DNA from: a phage
Length of the DNA stretch: 44,706 nt
Assembly: GCA_021454005.1 (NCBI GenBank)
Contig: GCA_021454005.1_3939.1
Reading direction: 5' to 3' (one strand)
How positions within the stretch are numbered: the stretch's first letter is position 1; each line of letters begins with the position of its first letter. The position numbers and the translations under genes were made by a program. This document shows positions 1,956 to 44,706 of the stretch, one piece after another. The notes beneath the pieces are model-generated. The model saw only the letters and a list, made by a program, of their open reading frames with translations. It made no database searches and had not been told where the DNA came from.

Positions 1956-2405
1956 ATGTGTTATACAGGCGACCCAGCCAATAACCCTCTTGATAGAGTA
2001 AGAATCCTCTGCACAGACACTAATAATGATGAAATTCTTATTGAGCAGTCTGTGCTAGAGTGGTTCTATCTAGAATCTGGAAAGGATGAAAAGAAAGCAG
2101 CCATCAAAGCTCTTAAATATTTACTCTTTCAAGTAGCCAAGATGGGAGATGAGAAGGTTGGTGGTGTTTATTTACGCAACTCTTCCAGATTCAAATCTCT
2201 GAAAGCTGTTTATGACGACCTTGTTAAAAGCTCTGTTTCAGGACTACCCTATGCAGGTGGTATTAATCAGTGTGATATTGACATGCGTCGTCAGAATCCT
2301 TGCTCTGTCAAGAAATACACAGAATATGGTGATGCTGCCAGATACGAAGGCAGAGATTACTGCAACCGTGTTAATGGCGTATTTATTATCGAGCGAGATG
2401 AATAA
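1956..2405 (+). CDS. head-tail joining / neck protein (hypothetical)
   Basis: 149 aa ORF with strong RBS AAGGAGGG, first of four small ORFs between capsid and sheath. Confidence 0.3.
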   Translation: MCYTGDPANNPLDRVRILCTDTNNDEILIEQSVLEWFYLESGKDEKKAAIKALKYLLFQVAKMGDEKVGGVYLRNSSRFKSLKAVYDDLVKSSVSGLPYAGGINQCDIDMRRQNPCSVKKYTEYGDAARYEGRDYCNRVNGVFIIERDE

Positions 2406-2887
2406 TGGTTAAAAGGGTTATTCACCCCGCGAGAGCAAAATTAGTCGGGGCTATGAAGAACTTGCAAACGGCTAATGCTCAAGTTGGGTATTTTCAAGAA
2501 CAAGGTCAACATAGCTCTGGTTTTTCTTATCCTGCTTTAATGTATTTACAAGAAGTTATTGGGGTTCCTTCAGCTTCTGGTAAAGTATATCGTAGGTTGT
2601 TTGAAATTACTATGATGCTAAACAAACAGACCTTGTTAGAGCAGACTAAGAAGAATCTATATAAGCAACTTAGCAGTCTCAACACAGACCCTTCAAATAC
2701 CTTAGAAGCATTTGCAAAGAATGCTCAAAAGGCAATTAAAAGAGGTTTTGGTAATTCTGCTATCCTCCCTCCTAACGCACCTTCCACAGTCAAGAAAAAA
2801 GGCTTTAACGCACCTCTTGTTGAGACAGGTGACTTAAGAGATAACCTTGCTTATAAAATTTCTACTAAGAAGGGTATTAAAAAATGA
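2405..2887 (+). CDS. head-tail joining / neck protein (hypothetical)
   Basis: 160 aa ORF, start overlaps the upstream stop (ATGA); position only. Confidence 0.3.
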   Translation: MVKRVIHPARAKLVGAMKNLQTANAQVGYFQEQGQHSSGFSYPALMYLQEVIGVPSASGKVYRRLFEITMMLNKQTLLEQTKKNLYKQLSSLNTDPSNTLEAFAKNAQKAIKRGFGNSAILPPNAPSTVKKKGFNAPLVETGDLRDNLAYKISTKKGIKK

Positions 2888-3285
2888 GACTCTTAAACAG
2901 ACACAGCTTTGTAGTAAAGCGTAAAGTCTCTGAAGATGGTTATTATAATGCTGATGGTGATTGGGTAGCTTCACAAGATATTGTAGAGGTTAACTGTAAA
3001 GGTAATATTCAGCCATATATCAAAGGTTCTGTAAAGAATGGTACACAGATTGCTTTACCGGAAGGTATTAGGCTTACCGATACAAGAATCCTGTATACCA
3101 CATATAAACTTAGAACTTCAGATGATGTAGAGTGGAATGAGTCTGATATTGTTATGATTGATGGTCATGAGTATGAAGTATTTATGACTATGGATTGGTC
3201 ACAGCAATTAGCCCATACGTCCCATTATGAATATATCATTATTAGAAGGGATAAAATGAATGCAGTTAGAAACAGCAGAACTTGA
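2884..3285 (+). CDS. neck / tail completion protein (hypothetical)
   Basis: 133 aa ORF overlapping the previous stop; position only. Confidence 0.3.
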   Translation: MRLLNRHSFVVKRKVSEDGYYNADGDWVASQDIVEVNCKGNIQPYIKGSVKNGTQIALPEGIRLTDTRILYTTYKLRTSDDVEWNESDIVMIDGHEYEVFMTMDWSQQLAHTSHYEYIIIRRDKMNAVRNSRT

Positions 3286-3859
3286 AAAAGGTCTAGTTAG
3301 AACCTTAGTGGATGTTATTGGTCACAGACTAGCTCGTGATAAGAATAATAGACCAAACGTAATTAGAGCTTACCCTTCTGATAACTCAAATGACAAAGGT
3401 TTAAAACCTGACCAGCCATTTATTACCGTATATTGTCAAGATGCTGCAACACCTTATGGTTGGGTTCTTGATAAGTTTGTTGAGGATGATGTAGTTTGCT
3501 ACAGAATTACTTTTCAGATTCCTGTATTAATTACGGTCAATGGTAAAGGTGCTCACAGTATTATGCTTGAGCTTAAACAACGATTAGAGATGAGTTCAGT
3601 CAGGGATTTAATTCTTGAAGAGACAGGAGCTACAGTACTAGACACTGGAGCCATCCCAAATGACTACACTTATCTCAATACAGATTTCGAAAATTCTGCG
3701 CCTCTTGTTGTAACTCTTGTAAAAAATTCAGTCCTGAAAGATGAACGTGGAAGTATTATTGAGCGTGTCATTGTTGATGGTGAGTTGGTTTATGAAGAAG
3801 GACAAGAGCCACCAGAATATACTATCCATCTAGATGTAGACTCCAAAGGGGTAAAATAA
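3260..3859 (+). CDS. neck / tail terminator-like protein (hypothetical)
   Basis: 199 aa ORF immediately upstream of the sheath gene; position only. Confidence 0.3.
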   Translation: MQLETAELEKGLVRTLVDVIGHRLARDKNNRPNVIRAYPSDNSNDKGLKPDQPFITVYCQDAATPYGWVLDKFVEDDVVCYRITFQIPVLITVNGKGAHSIMLELKQRLEMSSVRDLILEETGATVLDTGAIPNDYTYLNTDFENSAPLVVTLVKNSVLKDERGSIIERVIVDGELVYEEGQEPPEYTIHLDVDSKGVK

Positions 3860-5212
3860 ATGTGGAATCCAATTGTTAATGTAGATATTACATTGAACAC
3901 CGCAGGAACTACAAGAGAAGGTTTTGGTTTGCCACTATTCTTAGCTTCAACAGATAACTTTGAAGAAAGAGTCCGTGGTTATACTTCCTTAACTGAAGTT
4001 GCTGAAGATTTCGATGAAAACTCTGCTGCATATAAGGCTGCTAAACAACTTTGGAGTCAAACTCCTAAAGTAACTCAGCTTTATATTGGTAGACGTGCTA
4101 TGCAGTACACTGTATCAATTCCTAATGCTGTTACTGAAAGTACAGACTACTCAATTACTGTAGCTGCTGGCGGTGGAATTTCTCAACCATACCAGTACAC
4201 AGCAGTGGAATCAGACACTGCTGAGAAAGTTTTGCAACAGTTTAAAACACAGATTGAAGCTGACCCAACAATCAAAGATAAGGTTTCTGTGAACGTAACT
4301 GGTAGCAATGGCTCTGCCACAATGATTATTACCAAAGCTGGTGATAATGACTTTGTGAAAGTAACAACCACAGCACAGACTGTGTATATTGCAAGTACAA
4401 CTGCCGATACAGCATCAACTGCTCTGGCAGCTATCGAAGCTTACTCTACTGACTGGTATTTCATTGCAGCAGAAGACAGAACTCAACAGTTTGTCTTAGC
4501 AATGGCTTCTGAGATTCAGGCTCGCAAGAAAATCTTCTTTACAGCTAACTCCGATGTAACAGCCCTGCAAGGTACAGAATTAGCCAGTGCAAATGATGTT
4601 CCAGCACAGCTTGCTAAGAGTATGTACACTCGTACAGTTTGCTTGTGGCATCACGCAGCAGCAGAAGACTATCCAGAGATGGCATACATTGCTTATGGTG
4701 CTCCATATGATGCAGGTTCAATTGCTTGGGGTAATGCTCAGCTAACTGGTGTAGCAGCTTCTCTACAACCATCTAATCAGAGACCTCTGACAAGTATTCA
4801 GAAGTCTGCTTTAGATGTACGTCACTGTAACTTTATTGACCTTGATGGTGGTGTTCCAGTGGTTCGTAGAGGGATTACTTCTGGTGGGGAATGGATTGAT
4901 ATCGTCCGTGGCGTTGACTGGTTAGAATCAGACCTGAAAACTTCTCTGAGAGACTTGCTAATTAACCAGAAGGGTGGTAAGATTACTTATGATGATACTG
5001 GTATTACCCGTATTCGTCAAGTCATTGAAACCTCTCTGCAAAGAGCAGTCAACAGAAACTTCCTGTCATCTTACACAGTTAATGTTCCTAAAGCCTCTCA
5101 AGTTGCTTTAGCAGACAAGAAAGCACGTATCCTAAAAGACGTTACCTTCGCAGGTATCTTAGCAGGTGCTATCTTGGATGTTGACTTGAAAGGTACAGTG
5201 GCTTACGAATAA
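3860..5212 (+). CDS. tail sheath protein
   Basis: 450 aa ORF followed by tube-sized ORF, chaperone pair and tape measure, the P2/Mu order sheath - tube - chaperones - TMP. Confidence 0.55.
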   Translation: MWNPIVNVDITLNTAGTTREGFGLPLFLASTDNFEERVRGYTSLTEVAEDFDENSAAYKAAKQLWSQTPKVTQLYIGRRAMQYTVSIPNAVTESTDYSITVAAGGGISQPYQYTAVESDTAEKVLQQFKTQIEADPTIKDKVSVNVTGSNGSATMIITKAGDNDFVKVTTTAQTVYIASTTADTASTALAAIEAYSTDWYFIAAEDRTQQFVLAMASEIQARKKIFFTANSDVTALQGTELASANDVPAQLAKSMYTRTVCLWHHAAAEDYPEMAYIAYGAPYDAGSIAWGNAQLTGVAASLQPSNQRPLTSIQKSALDVRHCNFIDLDGGVPVVRRGITSGGEWIDIVRGVDWLESDLKTSLRDLLINQKGGKITYDDTGITRIRQVIETSLQRAVNRNFLSSYTVNVPKASQVALADKKARILKDVTFAGILAGAILDVDLKGTVAYE

Positions 5213-5227
5213 TAGAGGTAAATTGGA

Positions 5228-5674
5228 ATGGCTATGTATCAGCAATATTCCCCTAAAGACGTTGTATGTAGCTGGAATGGTATTGCCATTGAAGGCTTTG
5301 CCCCAGACTCATTCTTGCGTCTACAGAGAACATCACCACTTGTGACACCAGTTGTTGGTGCAGGTGGTCAGGTTGCTCTAACAAGAAATGCAGACAAGAC
5401 AGGTACTATTGAGATTGAGTTAATGCAGACTTCTCTCTCTAACCAGATGCTTTCTGCAATTCAAGCTAAACAAGACAATATGGAACTTGAAGAAGATATC
5501 TCTTCTAACTTCGTAATCTACGACCCATCAGGCTCTGTTCTGGCAACCGGTATTAATGCTTGGTTGCAGGAACTACCACAGATTGAACTTGGTCGTGACC
5601 AGAACTCTAAAACTTGGATTTTTGGTTGTGAGAAGTTAGACTACACTTCTACAATTCCAGCGTCAAGTGTTTAA
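5228..5674 (+). CDS. tail tube protein
   Basis: 148 aa ORF after the sheath gene, followed by a strong rho-independent terminator. Confidence 0.5.
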   Translation: MAMYQQYSPKDVVCSWNGIAIEGFAPDSFLRLQRTSPLVTPVVGAGGQVALTRNADKTGTIEIELMQTSLSNQMLSAIQAKQDNMELEEDISSNFVIYDPSGSVLATGINAWLQELPQIELGRDQNSKTWIFGCEKLDYTSTIPASSV

Positions 5675-5685
5675 TAAATCCTATA

Positions 5686-5720
5686 AGGGGGAGACTTTAA
5701 AAGGTCTTCCCCTTTTTTGT
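5686..5720 (+). terminator. rho-independent terminator after tail tube gene
   Basis: GC-rich hairpin (GGGGAGAC / GTCTTCCCC) followed by TTTTTTGTTT. Confidence 0.6.
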
Positions 5721-5747
5721 TTCTTTTAAAAGTATTAAGGAATCACA

Positions 5748-6146
5748 ATGAAAACAGAATCTAGAGTAATTAACGGTAAGAAAGTGAATATCATTCTGCT
5801 TGGGGCAAGAGATGGTATTAAGATGTCTATGAAGTTGGGTAAAATTGTTGTTCCAACTTTTGCACAGATGCTATCAAGTCTGACTGACAAGGGTAAGAAA
5901 GAAGCTCCAATGGTTCCATTTAAAGAACTTGTTGAAGCTTGTTTTGACAGAATTGAAGAAATTAACCTTGAAGAGATGGCTACCTTATTATTTCAAGGGG
6001 CAACTGTTGACGACTTCCCACTTAATATTGATACGTACTTCCAAGCAAACTACGGTGAGTTTATTGATTACTTAGCATTTGCGCTGGAGGCAAACTTCGG
6101 AAGTTTTTTCGAAGCAAGCATTTTCAAAAGCCTAACTTCTCAGTAA
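5748..6146 (+). CDS. tail assembly chaperone (upstream frame)
   Basis: 132 aa ORF directly upstream of the tape measure gene; contains slippery heptamer T_TTT_TTC near its 3' end. Confidence 0.5.
   Translation: MKTESRVINGKKVNIILLGARDGIKMSMKLGKIVVPTFAQMLSSLTDKGKKEAPMVPFKELVEACFDRIEEINLEEMATLLFQGATVDDFPLNIDTYFQANYGEFIDYLAFALEANFGSFFEASIFKSLTSQ
6104..6110 (+). other. candidate -1 programmed ribosomal frameshift site
   Basis: T_TTT_TTC fits X_XXY_YYZ in the zero frame of ORF 5748..6146. The -1 frame is open from 6110 and continuous with ORF 6149..6388, whose ATG has no SD. Confidence 0.45.
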
Positions 6147-6148
6147 AC

Positions 6149-6387
6149 ATGGGTAACACTCTACAGACACCACTAACTGATGCTGCTGTAGAGGCAACCT
6201 ATGAAGAAGCAGACGAGATGAAATTTGTGCTTGCTATTTATGGTATGGAAGGGTGTAAAGAAACACTTGACCAACTCTTTGCTATGACATTCTCTGATTT
6301 ATTATCATTGAGACAATTTCTTGAGATTCAGAGGTCGTATAAAGAGGAAATTGCTTACAACGAACTTAGAAGAGCAGGAAAAATGTA

Positions 6388-6388
<1 letters not shown>
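6149..6388 (+). CDS. tail assembly chaperone, frameshift extension
   Basis: 79 aa ORF in the -1 frame relative to the upstream chaperone ORF, no RBS, ends at the tape measure start. Confidence 0.4.
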
Positions 6389-14407
<8,019 letters not shown>

Positions 14408-21300: not shown

Positions 21301-21600
21301 TTAATCTGCCAACCTTAAATTGAAATTAACACCAAATTTTTCACATACTTCCAACATATACTCAAGGGAGACGTTACCAGTGAGATGGATTATGTTGGAT
21401 ACACGAGCCTGAGAGATACCACAAATTTTAGCAACTTGCTCTTGAGAAAGACCTCTGGATTTAATCTCTCTCTTAAAACGATGTGCAACGAAATCTCTCA
21501 TTTCATCTACATCCATTGGACAAATATAACTCTCCATTTCAGCCTCTCTATCAGCCTCCCAATCATCTTGTGGGGCATAAGGGTCAAAAGCCTCATTCAT
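21301..21600 (-). CDS. putative helix-turn-helix DNA-binding protein
   Basis: HTH-like segment LSQEQVAKICGISQARVSNIIH preceded by acidic N-terminus; start taken at ATG 21600, overlapping upstream stop (ATGAATGA). Confidence 0.4.
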   Translation of the reverse strand: MNEAFDPYAPQDDWEADREAEMESYICPMDVDEMRDFVAHRFKREIKSRGLSQEQVAKICGISQARVSNIIHLTGNVSLEYMLEVCEKFGVNFNLRLAD

Positions 21601-24165: not shown

Positions 24166-25266
24166 TTATTCATAATCTCGTATAACGAGACCAACAGGGA
24201 ACTGTAAAGAACCCTTACGAGTCATCTTCTGGAACTGAACCGTTAAAGGTTTCCCGATAAACTCTTCAGGATGCTCAGCAAGATACTGTTTCTTCTCATG
24301 AGTAGTCTTCCATGAGACATCTACAAAGACGTTAGGAAGAGTCTCTACAACGAACTTACCATGACCACGTTTATCAGTCTTTACACCAGTAACTTTAAAC
24401 TCTTCAGTGTGCATCTTCTTGTGCTTAATCAAGAAGTATGAACGGTGACCACACTCATAGAAAGATTCTTCAGAGATTGAACGGTACATTGCACCTTCAA
24501 ACTTAGCTTCAACCCACTTATCATGAGCTTCATCAAACTCTTCCCAAGAATTTACACGGATAGTCTGTACAGGAACAACTCTACAGGTATCCCCAAGCTC
24601 AACAATAGGTGAGTTATCAATAACTTCACGACGCTCAGGCCAAGATTTTGAATTGTCACAGATATCATACCAGTAGAATTTAAGAAGGTGACGGTCTGGA
24701 TTGTCAGCATTCTTAATCATAGATACAATATCTTCTAAGTCCCAACCATGAGCATAAATCTCTCCGTCAAAGTCTTCAACTTGCGGATGTAATTTAAGCA
24801 ACAAAAGCAAATCTGGGATTAGTTCTGTTGGAACGTTGTAAACAGTATTCTCACGAGAATAAGCTGTGAAACTGACTGAATCAGCATCTCTTGAGATTCT
24901 ACAACGTACACCATCAAGTTTTGGTTGAGCATCAGCAGGGAACTTCAGATACTTTGCATGACTAACCTTTGCAGCATCATGAGCAAGCTGTACACCTACC
25001 TTCTCAGTATTCTGTGCAGACTCTTTTGTGTAAGCATAACCTTTACGGTCAACTTGCTTTTTATACTTAGCAGCAACTTCAAAGAGAGCTTGCTGTTCAG
25101 CGTTACGCTCATTCTTTTTACCGATGTTCTTAGGCTCTGCTGTATACTCTTCAAACATCATCTTGCCATTCTCTTTACCATAGGTTGTAATAACTTTGTC
25201 ACCTACAGCAACACATGACCAGACGTTGAAGGAACCATCTTTATTTTGTTTGTACAGAATTGTCAT
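24166..25266 (-). CDS. ATP-dependent DNA ligase
   Basis: Adenylation motif KLDGVRC (KxDG); size about 366 aa; start set at ATG 25266 with RBS GAGGT. Confidence 0.8.
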   Translation of the reverse strand: MTILYKQNKDGSFNVWSCVAVGDKVITTYGKENGKMMFEEYTAEPKNIGKKNERNAEQQALFEVAAKYKKQVDRKGYAYTKESAQNTEKVGVQLAHDAAKVSHAKYLKFPADAQPKLDGVRCRISRDADSVSFTAYSRENTVYNVPTELIPDLLLLLKLHPQVEDFDGEIYAHGWDLEDIVSMIKNADNPDRHLLKFYWYDICDNSKSWPERREVIDNSPIVELGDTCRVVPVQTIRVNSWEEFDEAHDKWVEAKFEGAMYRSISEESFYECGHRSYFLIKHKKMHTEEFKVTGVKTDKRGHGKFVVETLPNVFVDVSWKTTHEKKQYLAEHPEEFIGKPLTVQFQKMTRKGSLQFPVGLVIRDYE

Positions 25267-25459
25267 TTTTAACCTCTGAGTGATACCAAGTATTGCAAGC
25301 ATTACATGCGTAAAGCTCTAAGTCATTTTTATCTGGTTTGTGGAAACAGTTTGACCCACAACGACACCGGAATAGCTTACCATCAACACGAAGAATGAAT
25401 GTTTCAAGCTCACCATCTTCTGTAAGAACTGCGTTCTTAAATTTATCTTCTACAGTCAT
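25241..25459 (-). CDS. small zinc-finger protein (hypothetical)
   Basis: 72 aa with CRC...CNAC cysteine pairs; 3' end overlaps ligase start. Confidence 0.3.
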   Translation of the reverse strand: MTVEDKFKNAVLTEDGELETFILRVDGKLFRCRCGSNCFHKPDKNDLELYACNACNTWYHSEVKNDNSVQTK

Positions 25460-25672: not shown

Positions 25673-25942
25673 TCACTCAATAACCGTAGTGTGTGATTGA
25701 CCATTTTTGCCATAGCTATAAGATGTTGTTGTTTGGGAGTTTGGACATCTGACAACAACAATATCTCTGCTTATAGCATCACCATGTAACTTGTATACTC
25801 TGCAATCTTGCATCTCTGGTGGGAGACTGTAAGAAGCATTTTTATCTTCATAAGAAGGGTTGCAGCCAGATAGAAAAACAACACCAAGCGCAATTACTGC
25901 TTTCCACATAATACTTCCCCAGAGACTGTACATTTTCTTCAT
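25673..25942 (-). CDS. putative lipoprotein
   Basis: N-terminal hydrophobic segment ending in lipobox-like FLSGC; 89 aa. Confidence 0.45.
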   Translation of the reverse strand: MKKMYSLWGSIMWKAVIALGVVFLSGCNPSYEDKNASYSLPPEMQDCRVYKLHGDAISRDIVVVRCPNSQTTTSYSYGKNGQSHTTVIE

Positions 25943-26172
25943 AGCAACTCCAGAATATCAATACGTTCACCTTTGAGTACTCCAGTACGGTCTTTTGCAA
26001 TCTTACCGTCAACGATAAGGATGTGTGTAGACCTTAAAGTGTCGCTGTTAAAGGTTTTTACGAACTTGCTAGGCATCACTACAATACACATCTCCTGAAT
26101 CAACTCTGGAGTATAGCAATTGTCGTGAAGTTGCTGAATAACGTCTGCAAGTGTCATTTTTGATGTCTCCAA
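25939..26172 (-). CDS. small protein, paralog of 26360..26569
   Basis: C-terminus DGKIAKDRTGVLKGERIDILELL matches GGKIAKDKTGYLKGERVDIENLL in the other copy. Confidence 0.4.
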   Translation of the reverse strand: METSKMTLADVIQQLHDNCYTPELIQEMCIVVMPSKFVKTFNSDTLRSTHILIVDGKIAKDRTGVLKGERIDILELL

Positions 26173-26363
26173 TATTCAATATCTACAAGTTCTTGTGCAA
26201 TGCTTTTAAGGTTACTTTTAAGGAAAACTTTCTCACCACCAGACAGGGAAGTGTTATCAATGAGTCTATTCATTCTCTCAAACAACTTCTGCTTACGGTT
26301 CTTGATAGTTTCCTTTGAAGCACCTTTCATCATCGCTGCATGGGTTCTTCCACGGTGACTCAT
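26154..26363 (-). CDS. small basic protein (hypothetical)
   Basis: 69 aa Lys/Arg-rich ORF between the two paralogs. Confidence 0.3.
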   Translation of the reverse strand: MSHRGRTHAAMMKGASKETIKNRKQKLFERMNRLIDNTSLSGGEKVFLKSNLKSIAQELVDIEYWRHQK

Positions 26364-26569
26364 AGCAAATTCTCGATGTCTACACGTTCACCTTTTAAGT
26401 ACCCTGTCTTATCTTTTGCGATTTTCCCTCCAGCAATAAAGATATCTGCTATACGCAGAGCTTCAGGGTTTACTCTATAACCACTGCAAATAACAATAAG
26501 CATGTCTTCAATCTCTTTTTGAGAATAACCTGCACATTGCAACTGAACTTCAATCTCTGAAAGCGTCAT
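26360..26569 (-). CDS. small protein, paralog of 25939..26172
   Basis: 69 aa; shared C-terminal motif; RBS AGGAGG; conserved TTGACAAGGTG box upstream. Confidence 0.4.
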   Translation of the reverse strand: MTLSEIEVQLQCAGYSQKEIEDMLIVICSGYRVNPEALRIADIFIAGGKIAKDKTGYLKGERVDIENLL

Positions 26570-26630
26570 GTGACCTCCTATACAAGATACAGTATAAGGT
26601 ACTCTTCCATGAGCACCTTGTCAATACTAA

Positions 26631-29330
26631 TTAGTGAACCTCAAGCCAGCTTTTACCAACCTTACCAGTACCTGTAACAAGTGTTTCTTTCTTAAGACCT
26701 AAGTTCTTAGAAGCTTGTCCATAATACCAGTCAGTAACCGCTTTCACCTCTGCCGTCATGCTTTCTGGACATTCCCAACTCGTCTCATCGTGATATGCGC
26801 AGAGTAAACGAGCACCAATAGCTGGTTTGCGACCATTCAACTTCATCAAGCCTTCGTCAATCATACGACGACAAGCAAGGTTAATCGCCTCATTTTGAAT
26901 CTGAGCCTCTGAACCCATCAAAAGATAGTTCAATAATTTGTGTGGAGATTTACACCACAACCAAGCTCCAGCAACCTTTACAAAACCACCTTTAGAGATT
27001 GCAGCAGTCTTACCAAATACCTCTTCAAGTGCCTTTTTAGTTGCTTTGTAGTCAGCTTCCAAGTCATCTAGCAGCTTTTTAATTTTAGGCAAACGAATAA
27101 AGTAAGTCTGTTTAGTCAGCGCACCTTCCTGAGTAGTTGCAGCTTTAATCGTCTTAGCAAACTTCTCATCACCTGCACCGAACAGCAGTGCATAGATACC
27201 ATTCTTAGCTTTCTTACGACCCTTGCTAATCTCATGAAGAAGATTCTCATCCTGAGTAGCTCGACAAGTCAAGATGTCCTGCTCATCGTTCAAGTTAAAG
27301 TAAATACTGTTCAGTGTATGTGCATCAGTCCCTGAATAGACAACGTACAGGTCATTCTCAGAGTCATAGCGAAGGTACTTATCAATCTCTGGGTTAAGGT
27401 ACTCATCAAAGTGTTTACAGTAATAGCGTCCATCTTCTTGACGAATGAACTCAATTTCTTCTTTACCTTGCGTTACCGCTTTGGTGAAGTCTTTATCACC
27501 CATAAAGTTACAAAGAAGAACTAGCTGGGCTGAGTTCATGTCTACAGAGACAACGTTAGTACCTTCCTCACAAATCCACACTGCCCTCATTGGTTCCCCA
27601 TAGACAGCAGCACCAGACGGTACGTTTACAATACCATACTGTGTCATACGTCCAGTTGAAGTACCAAACACCATTGCACCAGCACTAAGGCGACCATCAG
27701 GACGAATCTGGTTCAACCAACCTTTTTCATCATCCTTTGAGTTCTCAATAGTTCTGCGTCGGTGCATCAAAGTGTAGTATTTAGCAATCTTCTGTCCAAG
27801 CTCACCTTCAATCGTATCGTAAGATGATTCAGTAAGTTTTGGTGAAGTACGGATTAAGCAAGGCTCAAGCAAATCTGTGTACTTCTTCACAGACCAGTTA
27901 TGCTCAATGTACTGGACGCCTTCGTGTTCAACATAACTCAAACCACACCGCTCAACCATTTCCTGCCACTTAGGATGCTTTGTAATCATCTTTTTATTGT
28001 CTTTGAAACGACAAACTTTGACAGGGCGACCATCAGAGTCTTTCTTGTAGTTCCAGTCATCTGGAATCCAACCAACTGATTTCAAGTAGTCTTTAACAAC
28101 TGCTACCTGAGTCATACGAGAAACTTCAAACTCAATTGGTGTATATGGTGCATCAATCAAACCTGTGTAGCGACTTGACTCAAGTTCAAAGTGGTTAACA
28201 ACGTGGCTGTTATAGTACTTCACAGTTTTGACTGTTTTTACTGGCTTCCAGTCTTTGCATTTCTTGCCAATCTTTGCGTTCAACTCATTGCAAATTGCAC
28301 GAGCATCCTTCATTGCTACAAAGCCTTCCTTGTACTCTTCACCAGTTACAGTGTTGGTTGGTGTATAGCAATTCCTTTTTTCAATGTTAAAAATCTTTGT
28401 AGTTGGCTTACCAAATGGTTTGATTTCGTATGTCTGCATCTCGCCATTACGTACCTGCTGACGATACTTTGTCTTAGGGTACTTGGTAATTCTTTTCAGT
28501 CCATCTGCATGACCAAATGTTTCAACATACTCATTCCAAGCTTTTGCAAACTCTTCTCCAGTGACTTTACCTTTGGTCTTAATAGTTGGAGGTAGATGTG
28601 GTTCAACCTCTGAAGCAAGCTCATTAGTCAACTTGTCAAGTTCCTTTACATGGAACTCCATAAGCTCTTTATCAGCTTTCCAACCATTGATAGCTTGTTG
28701 ACTCATCCAGAAAGATGTTTCTTTAGCTCGCATGTAGGTTTCATAAGTGTCTATGCCACACTTCTTAAGCTTGAGATACTCATTATCAAGTGCCCGTTTA
28801 GTTTTGGCGTTAATACGGATATCTTCTACAACACGAGTGAAGATTTCTGCATTCCACACACCCCAATGTTCAATCTCTGGTTTACGAACACCGACACGAG
28901 CACCCCATGCAGCCAAACCATGAGCACCTTTATAACCCTTTGGAGTTGGTCTATCCATCCACTGAACACGAGACTGGATAAGAGAATCCTGAAAGAAATT
29001 ACTCCACGGTTTACACTTTGGATTATCAAAGTTCCATAAATCGGGTGCAATGTGATTGAAAACCCACCAGTCATAACCAAGACCATTATGAATGCAAAGA
29101 CGTTTTGCCTTTAACGCAAATTCAATACCTTCACGTAAGCCACCCTTAATGTACTTGGTATACTTGTGACCGAGGATAGGCTCATCTGTAAAGACCCATA
29201 CAGGTGGCTCTTCATCGTCAGATTTATAGTCTGCGAAAGCCATTACGTGCACTTTAGTGAACTCAAGGAGTAAACCATCAGTTTCTGTATCACCAACTAA
29301 ATGTAAGTTTTTAAAATCTACGTTTTCCAT
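26631..29330 (-). CDS. DNA polymerase, family A (T7-like)
   Basis: Exo motif GDTETDGL; Pol A motif B RKKAKNGIYALLFGAG; motif C YHDE; start set at ATG 29330 with RBS GAGGGAG. Confidence 0.85.
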   Translation of the reverse strand: MENVDFKNLHLVGDTETDGLLLEFTKVHVMAFADYKSDDEEPPVWVFTDEPILGHKYTKYIKGGLREGIEFALKAKRLCIHNGLGYDWWVFNHIAPDLWNFDNPKCKPWSNFFQDSLIQSRVQWMDRPTPKGYKGAHGLAAWGARVGVRKPEIEHWGVWNAEIFTRVVEDIRINAKTKRALDNEYLKLKKCGIDTYETYMRAKETSFWMSQQAINGWKADKELMEFHVKELDKLTNELASEVEPHLPPTIKTKGKVTGEEFAKAWNEYVETFGHADGLKRITKYPKTKYRQQVRNGEMQTYEIKPFGKPTTKIFNIEKRNCYTPTNTVTGEEYKEGFVAMKDARAICNELNAKIGKKCKDWKPVKTVKTVKYYNSHVVNHFELESSRYTGLIDAPYTPIEFEVSRMTQVAVVKDYLKSVGWIPDDWNYKKDSDGRPVKVCRFKDNKKMITKHPKWQEMVERCGLSYVEHEGVQYIEHNWSVKKYTDLLEPCLIRTSPKLTESSYDTIEGELGQKIAKYYTLMHRRRTIENSKDDEKGWLNQIRPDGRLSAGAMVFGTSTGRMTQYGIVNVPSGAAVYGEPMRAVWICEEGTNVVSVDMNSAQLVLLCNFMGDKDFTKAVTQGKEEIEFIRQEDGRYYCKHFDEYLNPEIDKYLRYDSENDLYVVYSGTDAHTLNSIYFNLNDEQDILTCRATQDENLLHEISKGRKKAKNGIYALLFGAGDEKFAKTIKAATTQEGALTKQTYFIRLPKIKKLLDDLEADYKATKKALEEVFGKTAAISKGGFVKVAGAWLWCKSPHKLLNYLLMGSEAQIQNEAINLACRRMIDEGLMKLNGRKPAIGARLLCAYHDETSWECPESMTAEVKAVTDWYYGQASKNLGLKKETLVTGTGKVGKSWLEVH

Positions 29331-29376
29331 TTTTACTCCCTCTAAAATCATTAACCTCATACATTACTGCAAAAAA

Positions 29377-29382: not shown

Positions 29383-29526
29383 AAAGCAAGTTGACAATGC
29401 ACTTGACAAGGTGCTAATCTTTGCGAAGTGGGTTTTTACTTAAAAGGTTACTTAACAGTTTAACTATACAGATACTTTAAAACTCTTAAAAGATTATTTA
29501 ATAGCTTTTAAAAAGCTTTAAAGTAT

Positions 29527-30011: not shown

Positions 30012-30824
30012 ATGAATATCAATGTGGAACAGATGCTTGAAGAGAAAGGTGTTGATGAAGCATTCTTAATCAATGCCGTAGAAAGCATGGCTATGATTCT
30101 TCGTGGAAATAACTACACAGAACAGTTTATGCCTGCAAGCTACAACTTACCTGAAGACAAGTCTGATAGTAGTGCTTTTGCAGAGCAGGTTAATATGATG
30201 CTGTGTGACAAAAAGCTTGCTTTAGCATCTATCGTTGTAGGTGTCGATGCTCTTGCAGAGTTCATTTTTTATGAGATGCAGAAAAATGACTATATTGCCA
30301 TGACATCTGAAGAAAAAGACTCGCTGCTGCTCTTAGATAATGATGAGCTAGTTGGCCTGTTAATTTCTTCAACGAGTGCTGTTATGGCTGCTCTTGAGAA
30401 GCGTATGAATGAGAAGTTGTCACGGTATGAAAAACTTGATTGGGGCGTAGAAGAATTAAACCCACGAATCAAAGAGATTATCCAGCAAACCAAAGCTTCT
30501 TTGGAAGAAGCTGTGAAAGATGATTATGTAGCTGGCATAGAACCACTACAGGTGAAAGTTGCATTGATGATGCCAGCTATCTCTACGATGATGAATATCG
30601 TTGCATTAATCCAGCTTTCACAGATGATGGGTACAACCATCGAGTTCATTGAGAGTATGACTGGTGGTGTCAGTATGCAAGCAATCAATGATGTTTTGGT
30701 GAGCATTGGAGCTTCAATCATTGAAGAGAAACTGCGCATTAACTTTGGTGACGATTTTGTGAAGCAAATCGCAGCTATGGCTGAAAAAGAACACTCACAG
30801 ATTACCACTGAACAACTGCACTGA
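30012..30824 (+). CDS. hypothetical protein
   Basis: 270 aa acidic ORF; no motif recognised. Confidence 0.35.
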   Translation: MNINVEQMLEEKGVDEAFLINAVESMAMILRGNNYTEQFMPASYNLPEDKSDSSAFAEQVNMMLCDKKLALASIVVGVDALAEFIFYEMQKNDYIAMTSEEKDSLLLLDNDELVGLLISSTSAVMAALEKRMNEKLSRYEKLDWGVEELNPRIKEIIQQTKASLEEAVKDDYVAGIEPLQVKVALMMPAISTMMNIVALIQLSQMMGTTIEFIESMTGGVSMQAINDVLVSIGASIIEEKLRINFGDDFVKQIAAMAEKEHSQITTEQLH

Positions 30825-42525: not shown

Positions 42526-44670
42526 ATGAACAAAGTACAGATTATTAAAAAGAATGGCTCACTTGAAGAACCTGATATCAAAAAAGTTTTAGCAGCAGTC
42601 ACAAAGTCAGCTAACAGAGTTGGTTATAAAGAGCTTCCACCAGATGTTACTCAAGCTCTTGAGTCAGCATTTATGAGGATTCTGGTAAAGTCCACTAAGC
42701 AGAATAATTTGCTAATTTCGGTAAATGATATTCACAGTATTGTTGAGGGTGCTTTGGCAGAAGTCAATCACGAGATTTATGAGTCTTACTCAACATATAG
42801 AAATTACCGTAAAGAGGTTGCTCAAAATTGGGATGAACTCTACCAGAAGACTAAAGATACACTCTTCTTAGGTGACCGAGAAAACGCTAATTTTGACAGC
42901 AGTTTAATTTCTACAAAAGGTTCAATTATTCGTGGTTATCTGACTAAAGAAATCTTTAAACAGTACCATTTAACACCAGAGGAACTTGAAGCCATTGAAA
43001 AAGGGTTTATCTACATCCATGATTTAAGAGACCTAATTTTTGGTGGTATCAACTGTTGCCTGTTTGACATTGGTAAAGTCCTGAAAGGTGGCTTTGAAAT
43101 GTCTGGCATCGAATATTGTGAACCGAAGTCTGTACTGTCAGCCTTACAGGTTATTGGTGATGTAGTTCTTTCAGCAACTGCACAGCAATTTGGTGGCTTT
43201 ACTTTAGCAGAGATTGATAAGGTACTTGTACCGTATGCTAAGAAGTCTCTACACTATCATGCTGAGAAAGCAGCATCTTATGGTATTCCTAAAGAACATT
43301 ACCACAATTATGTCATGGAGCAGCTACAGATTGAACTGACTCAGGGTTTCCAGTCACTTGAAATGAAACTAAACACTGTACCTTGTAGTCGTGGGGATTT
43401 TGCATTCACAACTTTGACATTCGGGTTACTTGACTCAGATATGTCCAATGAAGATAACCGACTGCAATACATGATTGCAAGTACTCTCCTAGATGTTCGT
43501 ATGAATGGACAAGGTAAGAGCAAGAAGCCTGTTGTATTCCCTAAACTGGTTTATATTTATGACCAGAAGAGACACGATGAGAATATCTGTCAAGGCCACC
43601 TGTACAGTAAAGCTATTGAGTGTTGCTCTAAAGCAATGTATCCAGACTTCTTAAGTGTATCTGGTCATGGTGCTGTAGCAGAGGCTTTTGAGCGTTCTGG
43701 TAAGGTTATTTCACCAATGGGTTGCAGAGCTTTCTTGTCTCCATATCTTAATGAGGATGGGGAAGAGTTCTACGTTGGTCGTGCTAACATTGGTGCTGTA
43801 TCTTTGAACTTACCAATGATTTACCAGTATTCTAAAGAGAATGGATTAGACTTCTGGACAGAACTTGATAAATATCTCGAAATGATTCGTAGCTTCCATA
43901 AGAAACGCTACGAAATGATTGCTAATATGCCAGCAAGTTCTAACCCTCTTGCATTCACACAAGGTGGTCTGTACAAAGGAACTAAGAAACCTACTGACAA
44001 GGTTGGTTGGGATATTGTGAAGTCCTTCACAGCTTCTTTTGGTGTTACTGCGCTTGATGAGTTGTCTGTTCTTGCTGAAGGTAAACGACTTCATGAAGTT
44101 GGAAGCTATAGTTTTGCATATGATGTTCTGGCATACATCAACATGAAAACCGAAGAGTTTAAAAATGAAGATGGCTTCTTATATGCCGTCTATGGTACTC
44201 CAGCAGAATCACTATGTGGGACTCAGCTAAAACAGTTCAGAGATATGTTTGGGGTTATCAAAGGTGTTTCCGATAAGGAATACTTTACAAACAGTTTCCA
44301 TATGAATGTTGCAGCAGACATCTCGCCATTTGAGAAGCAGGACTTAGAAGAGCGATTCTTCCATATCTGTAGAGGCGGTAGAATCCAGTATGTAAGAGTA
44401 GCTAACCCAGAAAACTTAACAGCACTTAAAAGTTGTATTACAAGAGGGATGTTGAAAGGTTTCTATCAGGGGCTTAACTTTGACTTAGCAATCTGTGAAC
44501 ATTGTGGTAACAGACCAAAGGCTGATGTTGAAGAATGTGAGGTTTGCCATTCACATGATATCTCTGTGATTAACAGGGTGTGTGGGTATCTTGGATGGAC
44601 TAAGATTAAAGGTGAATCCCGAATGAACGATGCAAAAATCGCTGAGATTCGTGATAGAGTCTCTATGTAA
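42526..44670 (+). CDS. nrdD: anaerobic ribonucleotide reductase class III
   Basis: C-terminal glycyl-radical motif RVCGYLG preceded by Cys cluster CEHCGN...CEVCHSH; N-terminal ATP-cone-like segment; 714 aa. Confidence 0.85.
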   Translation: MNKVQIIKKNGSLEEPDIKKVLAAVTKSANRVGYKELPPDVTQALESAFMRILVKSTKQNNLLISVNDIHSIVEGALAEVNHEIYESYSTYRNYRKEVAQNWDELYQKTKDTLFLGDRENANFDSSLISTKGSIIRGYLTKEIFKQYHLTPEELEAIEKGFIYIHDLRDLIFGGINCCLFDIGKVLKGGFEMSGIEYCEPKSVLSALQVIGDVVLSATAQQFGGFTLAEIDKVLVPYAKKSLHYHAEKAASYGIPKEHYHNYVMEQLQIELTQGFQSLEMKLNTVPCSRGDFAFTTLTFGLLDSDMSNEDNRLQYMIASTLLDVRMNGQGKSKKPVVFPKLVYIYDQKRHDENICQGHLYSKAIECCSKAMYPDFLSVSGHGAVAEAFERSGKVISPMGCRAFLSPYLNEDGEEFYVGRANIGAVSLNLPMIYQYSKENGLDFWTELDKYLEMIRSFHKKRYEMIANMPASSNPLAFTQGGLYKGTKKPTDKVGWDIVKSFTASFGVTALDELSVLAEGKRLHEVGSYSFAYDVLAYINMKTEEFKNEDGFLYAVYGTPAESLCGTQLKQFRDMFGVIKGVSDKEYFTNSFHMNVAADISPFEKQDLEERFFHICRGGRIQYVRVANPENLTALKSCITRGMLKGFYQGLNFDLAICEHCGNRPKADVEECEVCHSHDISVINRVCGYLGWTKIKGESRMNDAKIAEIRDRVSM

Positions 44671-44672
44671 AA

Positions 44673-44684
44673 CTTGACAAGGTG
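44673..44684 (+). promoter_or_regulatory. conserved CTTGACAAGGTG box after nrdD
   Basis: Same 12-mer as 29402-29413 (+) and 26615-26626 (- strand); contains TTGACA; downstream gene is outside the window. Confidence 0.35.
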
Positions 44685-44706
44685 ATGTGGGTCTTGATAG
44701 GCTTAC

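Follow-up and report, generated by a model that had tools for sequence, protein, structure and literature searches.

Two anciently diverged paralogs of a small hypothetical-protein family behind the DNA polymerase gene of Felix-O1-like phages

Introduction

Why a phage should carry two similar small genes on either side of a third one, directly behind its DNA polymerase gene, is the question raised by the DNA stretch analyzed here, a phage contig of 44,706 nucleotides (GCA_021454005.1_3939.1; denoted here as the window). A sequence-only reading of this DNA had described the two outer ORFs as tandem paralogs, and had attributed their presence to selection for dosage or for diversification in a compact phage genome. 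Phages of the Felix O1 type are widely used against Salmonella and E. coli, in therapy and biocontrol as well as for typing, and most of their small middle genes lack a known function.

The Small-Gene String Between the Polymerase and Ligase Genes

Contrary to what had been supposed, the genome is not compact. The window region showed 91-95% nucleotide identity to many Felixounavirus genomes of ~83-98 kb (Felix-O1-like myoviruses), so that it represents roughly half of a Felixounavirus myovirus genome of ~88 kb. Both outer ORFs were found on the minus strand, within a string of small genes whose upstream neighbor is a family-A DNA polymerase gene (26631..29360, minus strand) and whose downstream end is an ATP-dependent DNA ligase gene (24166..25302, minus strand), both assigned from ORF calls and from the annotations of relatives. 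On the same strand, the string comprises copy B (26360..26569, 69 aa from an ATG start), the middle ORF, denoted here as M (26154..26363, 69 aa), copy A (25939..26157) and, as the next cistron after A, a lipoprotein-like ORF of 89 aa (25673..25942; phrog_902).

The ORF of copy A is real; the 77 aa first given to it (25939..26172) are due to an upstream TTG chosen by the ORF finder. Its start is most likely the ATG at 26157, giving a product of 72 aa, because this ATG overlaps the stop codon of M as ATGA and because the orthologs mio_64 and Felix01p173 are annotated at 219 nt. The same ATGA overlap occurs at all three junctions, that is, between the B stop and the M start, the M stop and the A start, and the A stop and the ATG of the lipoprotein-like ORF, which indicates that the string from B, M, A and the lipoprotein-like ORF to the ligase gene is translationally coupled, with B as cistron 1, M as cistron 2 and A as cistron 3. 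In Felix O1, the polymerase-to-ligase region lies within the transcription unit ORF96→80 (PMC3185647).

The lipoprotein-like ORF has a chimeric N-terminus, the first 11 residues of which match the start of Felix O1 ORF92 (bas63_0043), a small ORF located between A and the lipoprotein gene in most relatives. This implies a probable deletion of ~130 bp, with fusion, in the lineage of the window, common to the IMG/VR loci L009, L010 and L012.

The string starts at a conserved cassette of 55-60 nt that spans from the polymerase stop codon to the first small gene (26570..26630, minus strand). In each of the 28 loci compared, its 55-nt sequence, TTGACAAGGTGCTCAnGGAAGAGTACCTTATACTnTATCTTnTATAGGAGG, was found directly ahead of the first gene, regardless of whether this was B, M or A, and it is 93-100% identical across genera. 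The cassette contains a perfect -35 hexamer (TTGACA, 26624..26619) and a strong Shine-Dalgarno sequence (AGGAGG, 26579..26574). A scan with the sigma-70 consensus did not call it as a promoter, because the -10 hexamer at a spacing of 17 nt is weak (TACCTT); judging from its conservation and position, the cassette is a putative promoter.

The 12-mer that heads the cassette, TTGACAAGGTGC, recurs exactly at 29403..29414 (plus strand), in the divergent intergenic region that precedes the polymerase gene, and with one mismatch at 44674..44685 (plus strand), after an ORF ending at 44670. In total, it gave 10 matches against 4.7±2.0 expected, which is not clearly above chance, and it may be a phage-specific promoter motif.

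A and B Are Full-Length Paralogs of One Family

When the two proteins were aligned by BLASTP, they matched from end to end, with 33 of 72 residues identical (46%), a single three-residue gap and an E-value of 5e-18. The common C-terminal motif that had first drawn attention to the pair was confirmed (DGKIAKDRTGVLKGERIDILELL in A and GGKIAKDKTGYLKGERVDIENLL in B), as was the resemblance at the N-terminus (MTLADVIQQL in A and MTLSEIEVQL in B). Moreover, the phrog_4230 HMM was matched over profile positions 1-72 by A (residues 1-72, E=9.9e-43) as well as by B (residues 1-69, E=5e-33), and both mio_62 and mio_64 carry a VOG9270 note, a pVOG assignment that places the copies in this group by orthology and not by HMM. 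Copy B shows 100% identity to mio_62 and 82% to gp105 of the Mooglevirus Sf13, and copy A is 85% identical to mio_64 and 89% identical to Felix01p173 (ORF93). The description of the ORFs as tandem paralogs is therefore upheld by their full-length identity and their common membership in phrog_4230.

Both proteins are mildly acidic, with a pI of 5.5 for A and 4.8 for B. Residues invariant across the whole family comprise M1, Q9, L10 and Y15 in the N-terminal helix, together with the GKIxKDxTGxLKGE loop, the differences between A and B are found mainly at residues ~11-24 and 28-45, and the residues following the GER of the loop vary with the downstream neighbor. The AlphaFold2 model of B, built on a broader alignment, reached a pLDDT of 92.7 and a pTM of 0.80; that of A, built on a shallow one, reached a pLDDT of 79.8. 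As had been proposed as a check on the pair, structures were predicted for both paralogs, and the order of elements was equal: each model runs from two short helices through a strand, a further helix and a beta-hairpin to the conserved loop, and ends in a short C-terminal helix. The similarity is thus not confined to a short stretch between proteins of unrelated fold.

The impression that no known family could be recognized also stood: Pfam gave no match for either protein, NCBIfam gave only sub-threshold chance matches, and PADLOC, which covers defense proteins and not anti-defense proteins, gave no match at E <= 1, leaving only the PHROG and VOG groups of unknown function. All orthologs in phrog_4230 and VOG9270 are listed as hypothetical proteins in public annotations, and a literature search on phrog_4230, Felix01p173 and VOG9270 found no paper discussing these genes. 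Profile searches against the PDB returned only non-significant matches, namely de novo designs, the UBL domain of Ddi1 and DotG repeats, the latter matching only the generic helix-cap motif QLkaaGYt..E. The fold of B is confidently predicted, and no solved structure was found to resemble it.

Three known types of protein were considered and rejected. A beta-grasp or ubiquitin-like protein (ThiS/MoaD, UBL) would show that fold and, in the case of ThiS/MoaD, a C-terminal Gly-Gly, an HU/IHF-like DNA-binding protein would show the HU fold with its basic beta-arm or match the corresponding profile, and a HAD or P-type ATPase protein, suggested by the DKTG motif, would match a Rossmannoid HAD domain with motifs I-IV; none of the three found support in A or B.

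The bracketed ORF is, as first described, a Lys/Arg-rich protein of 69 aa (15 K+R, pI 10.3), and it proved unrelated to A and B. It belongs to phrog_5180 (VOG1491) and is a narrow orphan, limited to 40 protein clusters, each with an identity of 73% or more and each from Felix-O1-like phages; its distribution is narrower than that of the phrog_4230 family, and it is missing from 11 of the 35 loci compared. In several independent records, namely Pr103Blw (Pr103Blw_00092, at 2352..2531 of locus L002), ULIM3 and BPS17L1, a frameshift cuts M to 59 aa. This could reflect either a dispensable C-terminus or a recurrent sequencing or assembly artifact.

Age of the Two Copies and Selection on Them

The divergence between the two copies is old. 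The A and B genes of the window share ~55% nucleotide identity, with a dN of 0.52 and a saturated dS of 1.56, and a neighbor-joining tree resolved three deep clades: one with A and the Michonne-type members, one with B and the Mooglevirus members, and one with the distant pair of metagenomic contigs L036 and L037. In the A clade, the median dN/dS over 322 pairs from 26 unique sequences was 0.136; in the B clade, where substitutions are few, dN/dS ranged from 0 to 0.3. Both copies are real genes under purifying selection. Altogether, A and B are anciently diverged paralogs, representing clades A and B of an alpha/beta family of ~70 aa.

Positive selection in the variable middle segment was considered and rejected: codons 28-45, the most variable part, are more relaxed, but with a dN/dS of 0.26 they give no sign of arms-race evolution. 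A hybrid origin of the genes in A-only genomes, by recombination between B and A, was likewise discarded, since their proteins are A-type throughout; many carry Ser4 as in B, which is suggestive at most.

The Two-Copy State Is a Mosaic Minority

The family is narrowly distributed. By tblastn, it was found at 288 places in 253 phage records, so that ~35 records (~14%) carry two copies; a profile search of 1.84 billion representative proteins returned only 11 representatives at E <= 1e-3; and all 27 IMG/VR loci lie on Felix-like contigs of ~51-94 kb, most of them of ~88 kb. The family is thus confined to Felix-O1-like phages, that is, Felixounavirus, Mooglevirus, Suspvirus and a few unclassified relatives, and in the three named genera it is always present.

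When the polymerase, HNH, B, M, A and downstream genes were mapped in 35 loci, four arrangements emerged. The order polymerase-B-M-A was found in only four loci (the window, mio, Pr103Blw and UAB_Phi87), and the remainder presented, with or without an intervening HNH gene, M-A (15 loci, including Felix O1 and Bas63), A (11 loci, including wV8, VpaE1 and SUSP1) or B-M (five loci, including those of Mooglevirus). The two-copy state is thus a mosaic minority: most Felixounavirus genomes carry A only, those of Mooglevirus carry B only, and some phages carry A without M. The window itself illustrates how it can arise. An IMG/VR locus with the order HNH-M-A and no B (L009) shares 98-100% identity with it over the segment from M to the ligase gene, and mio and Pr103Blw carry B copies with 97% identity to its own, the breakpoint being located at the B/M boundary. 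On these comparisons, the window is a probable recombinant, mio-like on the B side and practically identical to a B-less relative from M to the ligase gene, and its two copies appear to be due to mosaic recombination rather than to local duplication.

The place of the family gene between the polymerase and ligase genes is maintained even in the distant contigs L036 and L037, each of which has a single copy. L036, a Logan contig of 57.6 kb (SRR31815898) from an unclassified distant Felix-like phage, presents the minimal interval (3033..7352), consisting of the polymerase gene, an ORF of 75 aa, the family gene (81 aa) and the ligase gene; the 75-aa ORF bears a weak resemblance (E=0.002) to the ORF that immediately follows the polymerase gene in Erwinia phage phiEa104. 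The distant member P0125 gave no match when searched by tblastn against the phage records.

Gain or loss of the B locus between closely named isolates or derivatives is suggested by VpaE1 (KM657822; H47), which has copy A only, at one place, and VpaE1_ev035 (LR699048; H31), which has B and A at two.

In relatives, a free-standing HNH/AP2-type homing endonuclease gene is variably present at a site flanked directly by the polymerase stop codon and the cassette (for instance, at 740..1243 in L006, at 922..1449 in L005 and at 30207..30734 in Bas63, L004); in the window, where the site corresponds to ~26630, it is absent. Within Felixounavirus and Suspvirus, a small and phylogenetically non-independent sample, it was found in 17 of 26 loci without B and in none of the four B-M-A loci. 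Homing endonucleases are associated in T4-like phages with gene polymorphism, by marker exclusion or co-conversion. The present case is alike in that the HNH/AP2-type gene comes and goes between the polymerase gene and the cassette and, in Felixounavirus and Suspvirus, occurs only in B-less loci, but it differs in that the Mooglevirus phages Sf13 and KPS64 carry both HNH and B. Co-conversion with the HNH gene might explain the loss of B.

These arrangements raise the possibility that the redundancy is accidental. A and B would then be positional alleles (xenologs) from different Ounavirinae lineages, in which the family gene precedes M (Mooglevirus) or follows it (Felixounavirus), juxtaposed by recombination through M or the cassette, and the presence of two copies would not be selected. 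The exclusive B-M order of Mooglevirus, the M-A order of most Felixounavirus genomes, the visible mosaicism of the window with its breakpoint at the B/M boundary and the low frequency of two-copy records all agree with this proposal, and the strong conservation of the cassette and M across genera would offer the homology needed for crossover. However, both copies are present together in several Felixounavirus backgrounds (the four phages with B-M-A) whose A copies differ by 4-15%, which suggests persistence rather than a one-off event; B is intact and constrained in the two-copy genomes; and the opposite gene orders are not explained unless a B-M-A ancestor existed. We regard this explanation as rather doubtful, though well short of negligible.

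Expression and Fitness Effects of Orthologs

Functional information on the family can be drawn from three published studies. In Felix O1, ORF93, the ortholog of A, is transcribed with a peak at 25 min, in the same class as the polymerase (ORF96) and ligase (ORF88) genes (PMC3185647, Table 3). The second study used Bas63, which naturally lacks B and in which a homing endonuclease gene adjoins the polymerase gene, in the PhageMaP knock-out screen, where a fitness below 0 denotes an essential gene (bioRxiv 10.1101/2024.10.10.617714). In its supplements, the sole A copy (g44) scored from +0.04 to +0.33 and M (g45) from +0.50 to +0.88 on S17, MG1655 and two defense strains, compared with -0.8 to -2.6 for the polymerase in the same screens, and the scores of g44 and g45 were unchanged on TerY-P and one further defense strain; the text of the preprint does not mention either gene. 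The third study, a CRISPRi-ART knock-down in SUSP1, which has A only and no M, gave a fitness of -0.30 (p=0.79, "Not Fit") for AVU07_agp044, annotated there as phrog_4230 / Felix01p173, and scored the polymerase agp046 as "Fit" (PMC11879866, supplements). Preprints on HIDEN-SEQ and on transposon mutagenesis include no Felix-like phage.

Since g44 scored above 0 in Bas63 and agp044 was "Not Fit" in SUSP1, the sole copy is dispensable on laboratory E. coli, even though phages of Felixounavirus, Mooglevirus and Suspvirus always carry the family. In the PhageMaP screen, g44 (~0.2) falls below typical neutral genes (~0.7-1.1), and for this reason A may have a modest general fitness role. The argument that tandem paralogs imply selection for the duplication is not supported by these data, given that a sole copy can be dispensed with in Bas63 and SUSP1 and that so few of the records carry both.

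Possible Roles of the Pair

The explanation that we favor, and to which we give an even chance, is that A and B are anciently diverged, non-essential accessory paralogs that probably bind a host, defense or phage partner, and that both are kept in the window either for diversification or as a legacy of recombination. The mechanism is proposed by analogy. T7 gp5.5, gp5.7 and gp5.9 are small non-essential proteins encoded among the replication genes, and they inhibit the host proteins H-NS, sigma-S RNA polymerase and RecBCD. A and B are likewise small, encoded beside the DNA polymerase gene, co-expressed with replication genes and dispensable on laboratory hosts, but no similarity to the T7 proteins in sequence or fold was found, so the likeness would be one of working and not of membership. 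Because of this analogy to small non-essential proteins among T7-like replication genes, we infer that the binding of a host, defense or phage protein is the most likely mechanism; synteny with the polymerase and ligase genes and co-expression with them would fit a replication-linked role equally well. The unchanged g44 and g45 scores on the two defense strains and the lack of an arms-race signal, even in codons 28-45, speak against the proposal.

In this proposal, the proteins would be conditionally useful factors, and the partner would be bound through the invariant surface, formed by the N-terminal helix MT(L/I)x(D/E)(I/V)xxQL...Y and the loop GKIxKDxTGxLKGE(R/H). A and B would probably differ in partner or allele specificity, since their divergence is concentrated at residues ~11-24 and 28-45, so that this middle segment would set the specificity. 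The basic protein M might be a partner, although not an obligatory one. Of the two motives for keeping both copies that had been put forward at the outset, diversification may be the better half, and dosage does not agree with the saturated dS.

A bolder version holds that phrog_4230 is an effector family with a new fold, directed against a host or defense protein, in which A and B are specificity variants, the slot behind the cassette is a site of allele swapping helped by homing-endonuclease co-conversion, and M is a co-factor or regulator. Taken as a whole, this is unlikely; if a host- or defense-targeting effector were indeed involved, the natural arrangement variants of A, B and M would constitute a ready-made panel for the mapping of specificity.

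The family protein could also assist the adjacent polymerase or ligase in processivity, loading or coupling, with one paralog for each of two partners. Two observations speak for this role: wherever the family occurs, the compact interval of L036 among these cases, its gene is located between the polymerase and ligase genes, and ORF93 has its 25-min peak in common with both enzymes. Against it, the sole copy is dispensable under conditions in which the polymerase is strongly required, and neither clamps nor thioredoxin nor any other known accessory factor was found to resemble the family in structure. In addition, the C-terminal 299 aa of the polymerase matched 303 records, compared with 253 for the family, the excess being mainly due to Kolesnikvirus (Erwinia phages), whose polymerase is homologous (73-75% identical over these 299 aa) and yet has no family member encoded downstream. 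A role as a replication accessory factor is, on balance, quite unlikely.

Very improbable, in turn, is that A and B are autoregulators of the operon, transcriptional or translational, acting on the cassette in the manner of RegA beside T4 gene 43. The first cistron behind this highly conserved cassette is always M or a family member, and within the cassette a short inverted repeat lies beside the Shine-Dalgarno sequence; however, the fold of the leader RNA was no better than that of shuffled sequence (z = -0.81), A and B are acidic and matched no HTH, RHH or other nucleic-acid-binding profile, and the basic M would be a better candidate than either. A search of the whole window against Rfam gave no match.

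Finally, the notion that a second copy is retained to raise the amount of a single product agrees with their common operon and predicted fold, but a recent tandem duplication would have left adjacent copies of high identity and low dS, and those found here are old (dS ~1.6), both under purifying selection, 46% identical in protein and ~55% in nucleotide sequence, separated by M and placed in different deep clades, while most relatives manage with a single, dispensable copy, so that dosage is exceedingly improbable and is effectively excluded by the divergence of the copies and the rarity of the two-copy state.

Relation to Annotated Genes

The genes and their family assignment are already known from public annotations. 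Felix O1 ORF93, Bas63 gp44 (bas63_0044), SUSP1 AVU07_agp044, mio_62, mio_64 and Sf13 gp105 belong to the same family by HMM and BLAST, and they occupy the same position downstream of the polymerase gene, behind the same upstream cassette. The window does not differ from them in kind; it presents the less common B-M-A arrangement, also found in mio, Pr103Blw and UAB_Phi87. What is new is modest: the full-length paralogy, the series of arrangements behind a fixed cassette, the mosaic origin of the two copies in the window, the confident prediction of a fold without a solved counterpart and the link to two published fitness data sets. The A/B pair is an ordinary accessory-gene polymorphism that would not surprise a phage genomicist, in which cassette-like recombination behind a fixed putative promoter changes the number of copies and their order.

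Two further ORFs of the window have close counterparts in Bas63 that were reported as triggers of bacterial defense systems. A Cys-rich (CxC...CxxC) ORF of 72 aa (25244..25459, minus strand) is 97% identical to Bas63 gp40, which is reported to trigger the hhe defense system and has a strongly negative knock-out screen score of -2 to -3 (PhageMaP; bioRxiv 10.1101/2024.10.10.617714). The ORF at 21304..21600 (minus strand) shares 99% identity with Bas63-035, a putative HTH transcriptional regulator that is reported to be what triggers the DRT7 abortive-infection system on the phage side (bioRxiv 10.64898/2026.04.18.719102).
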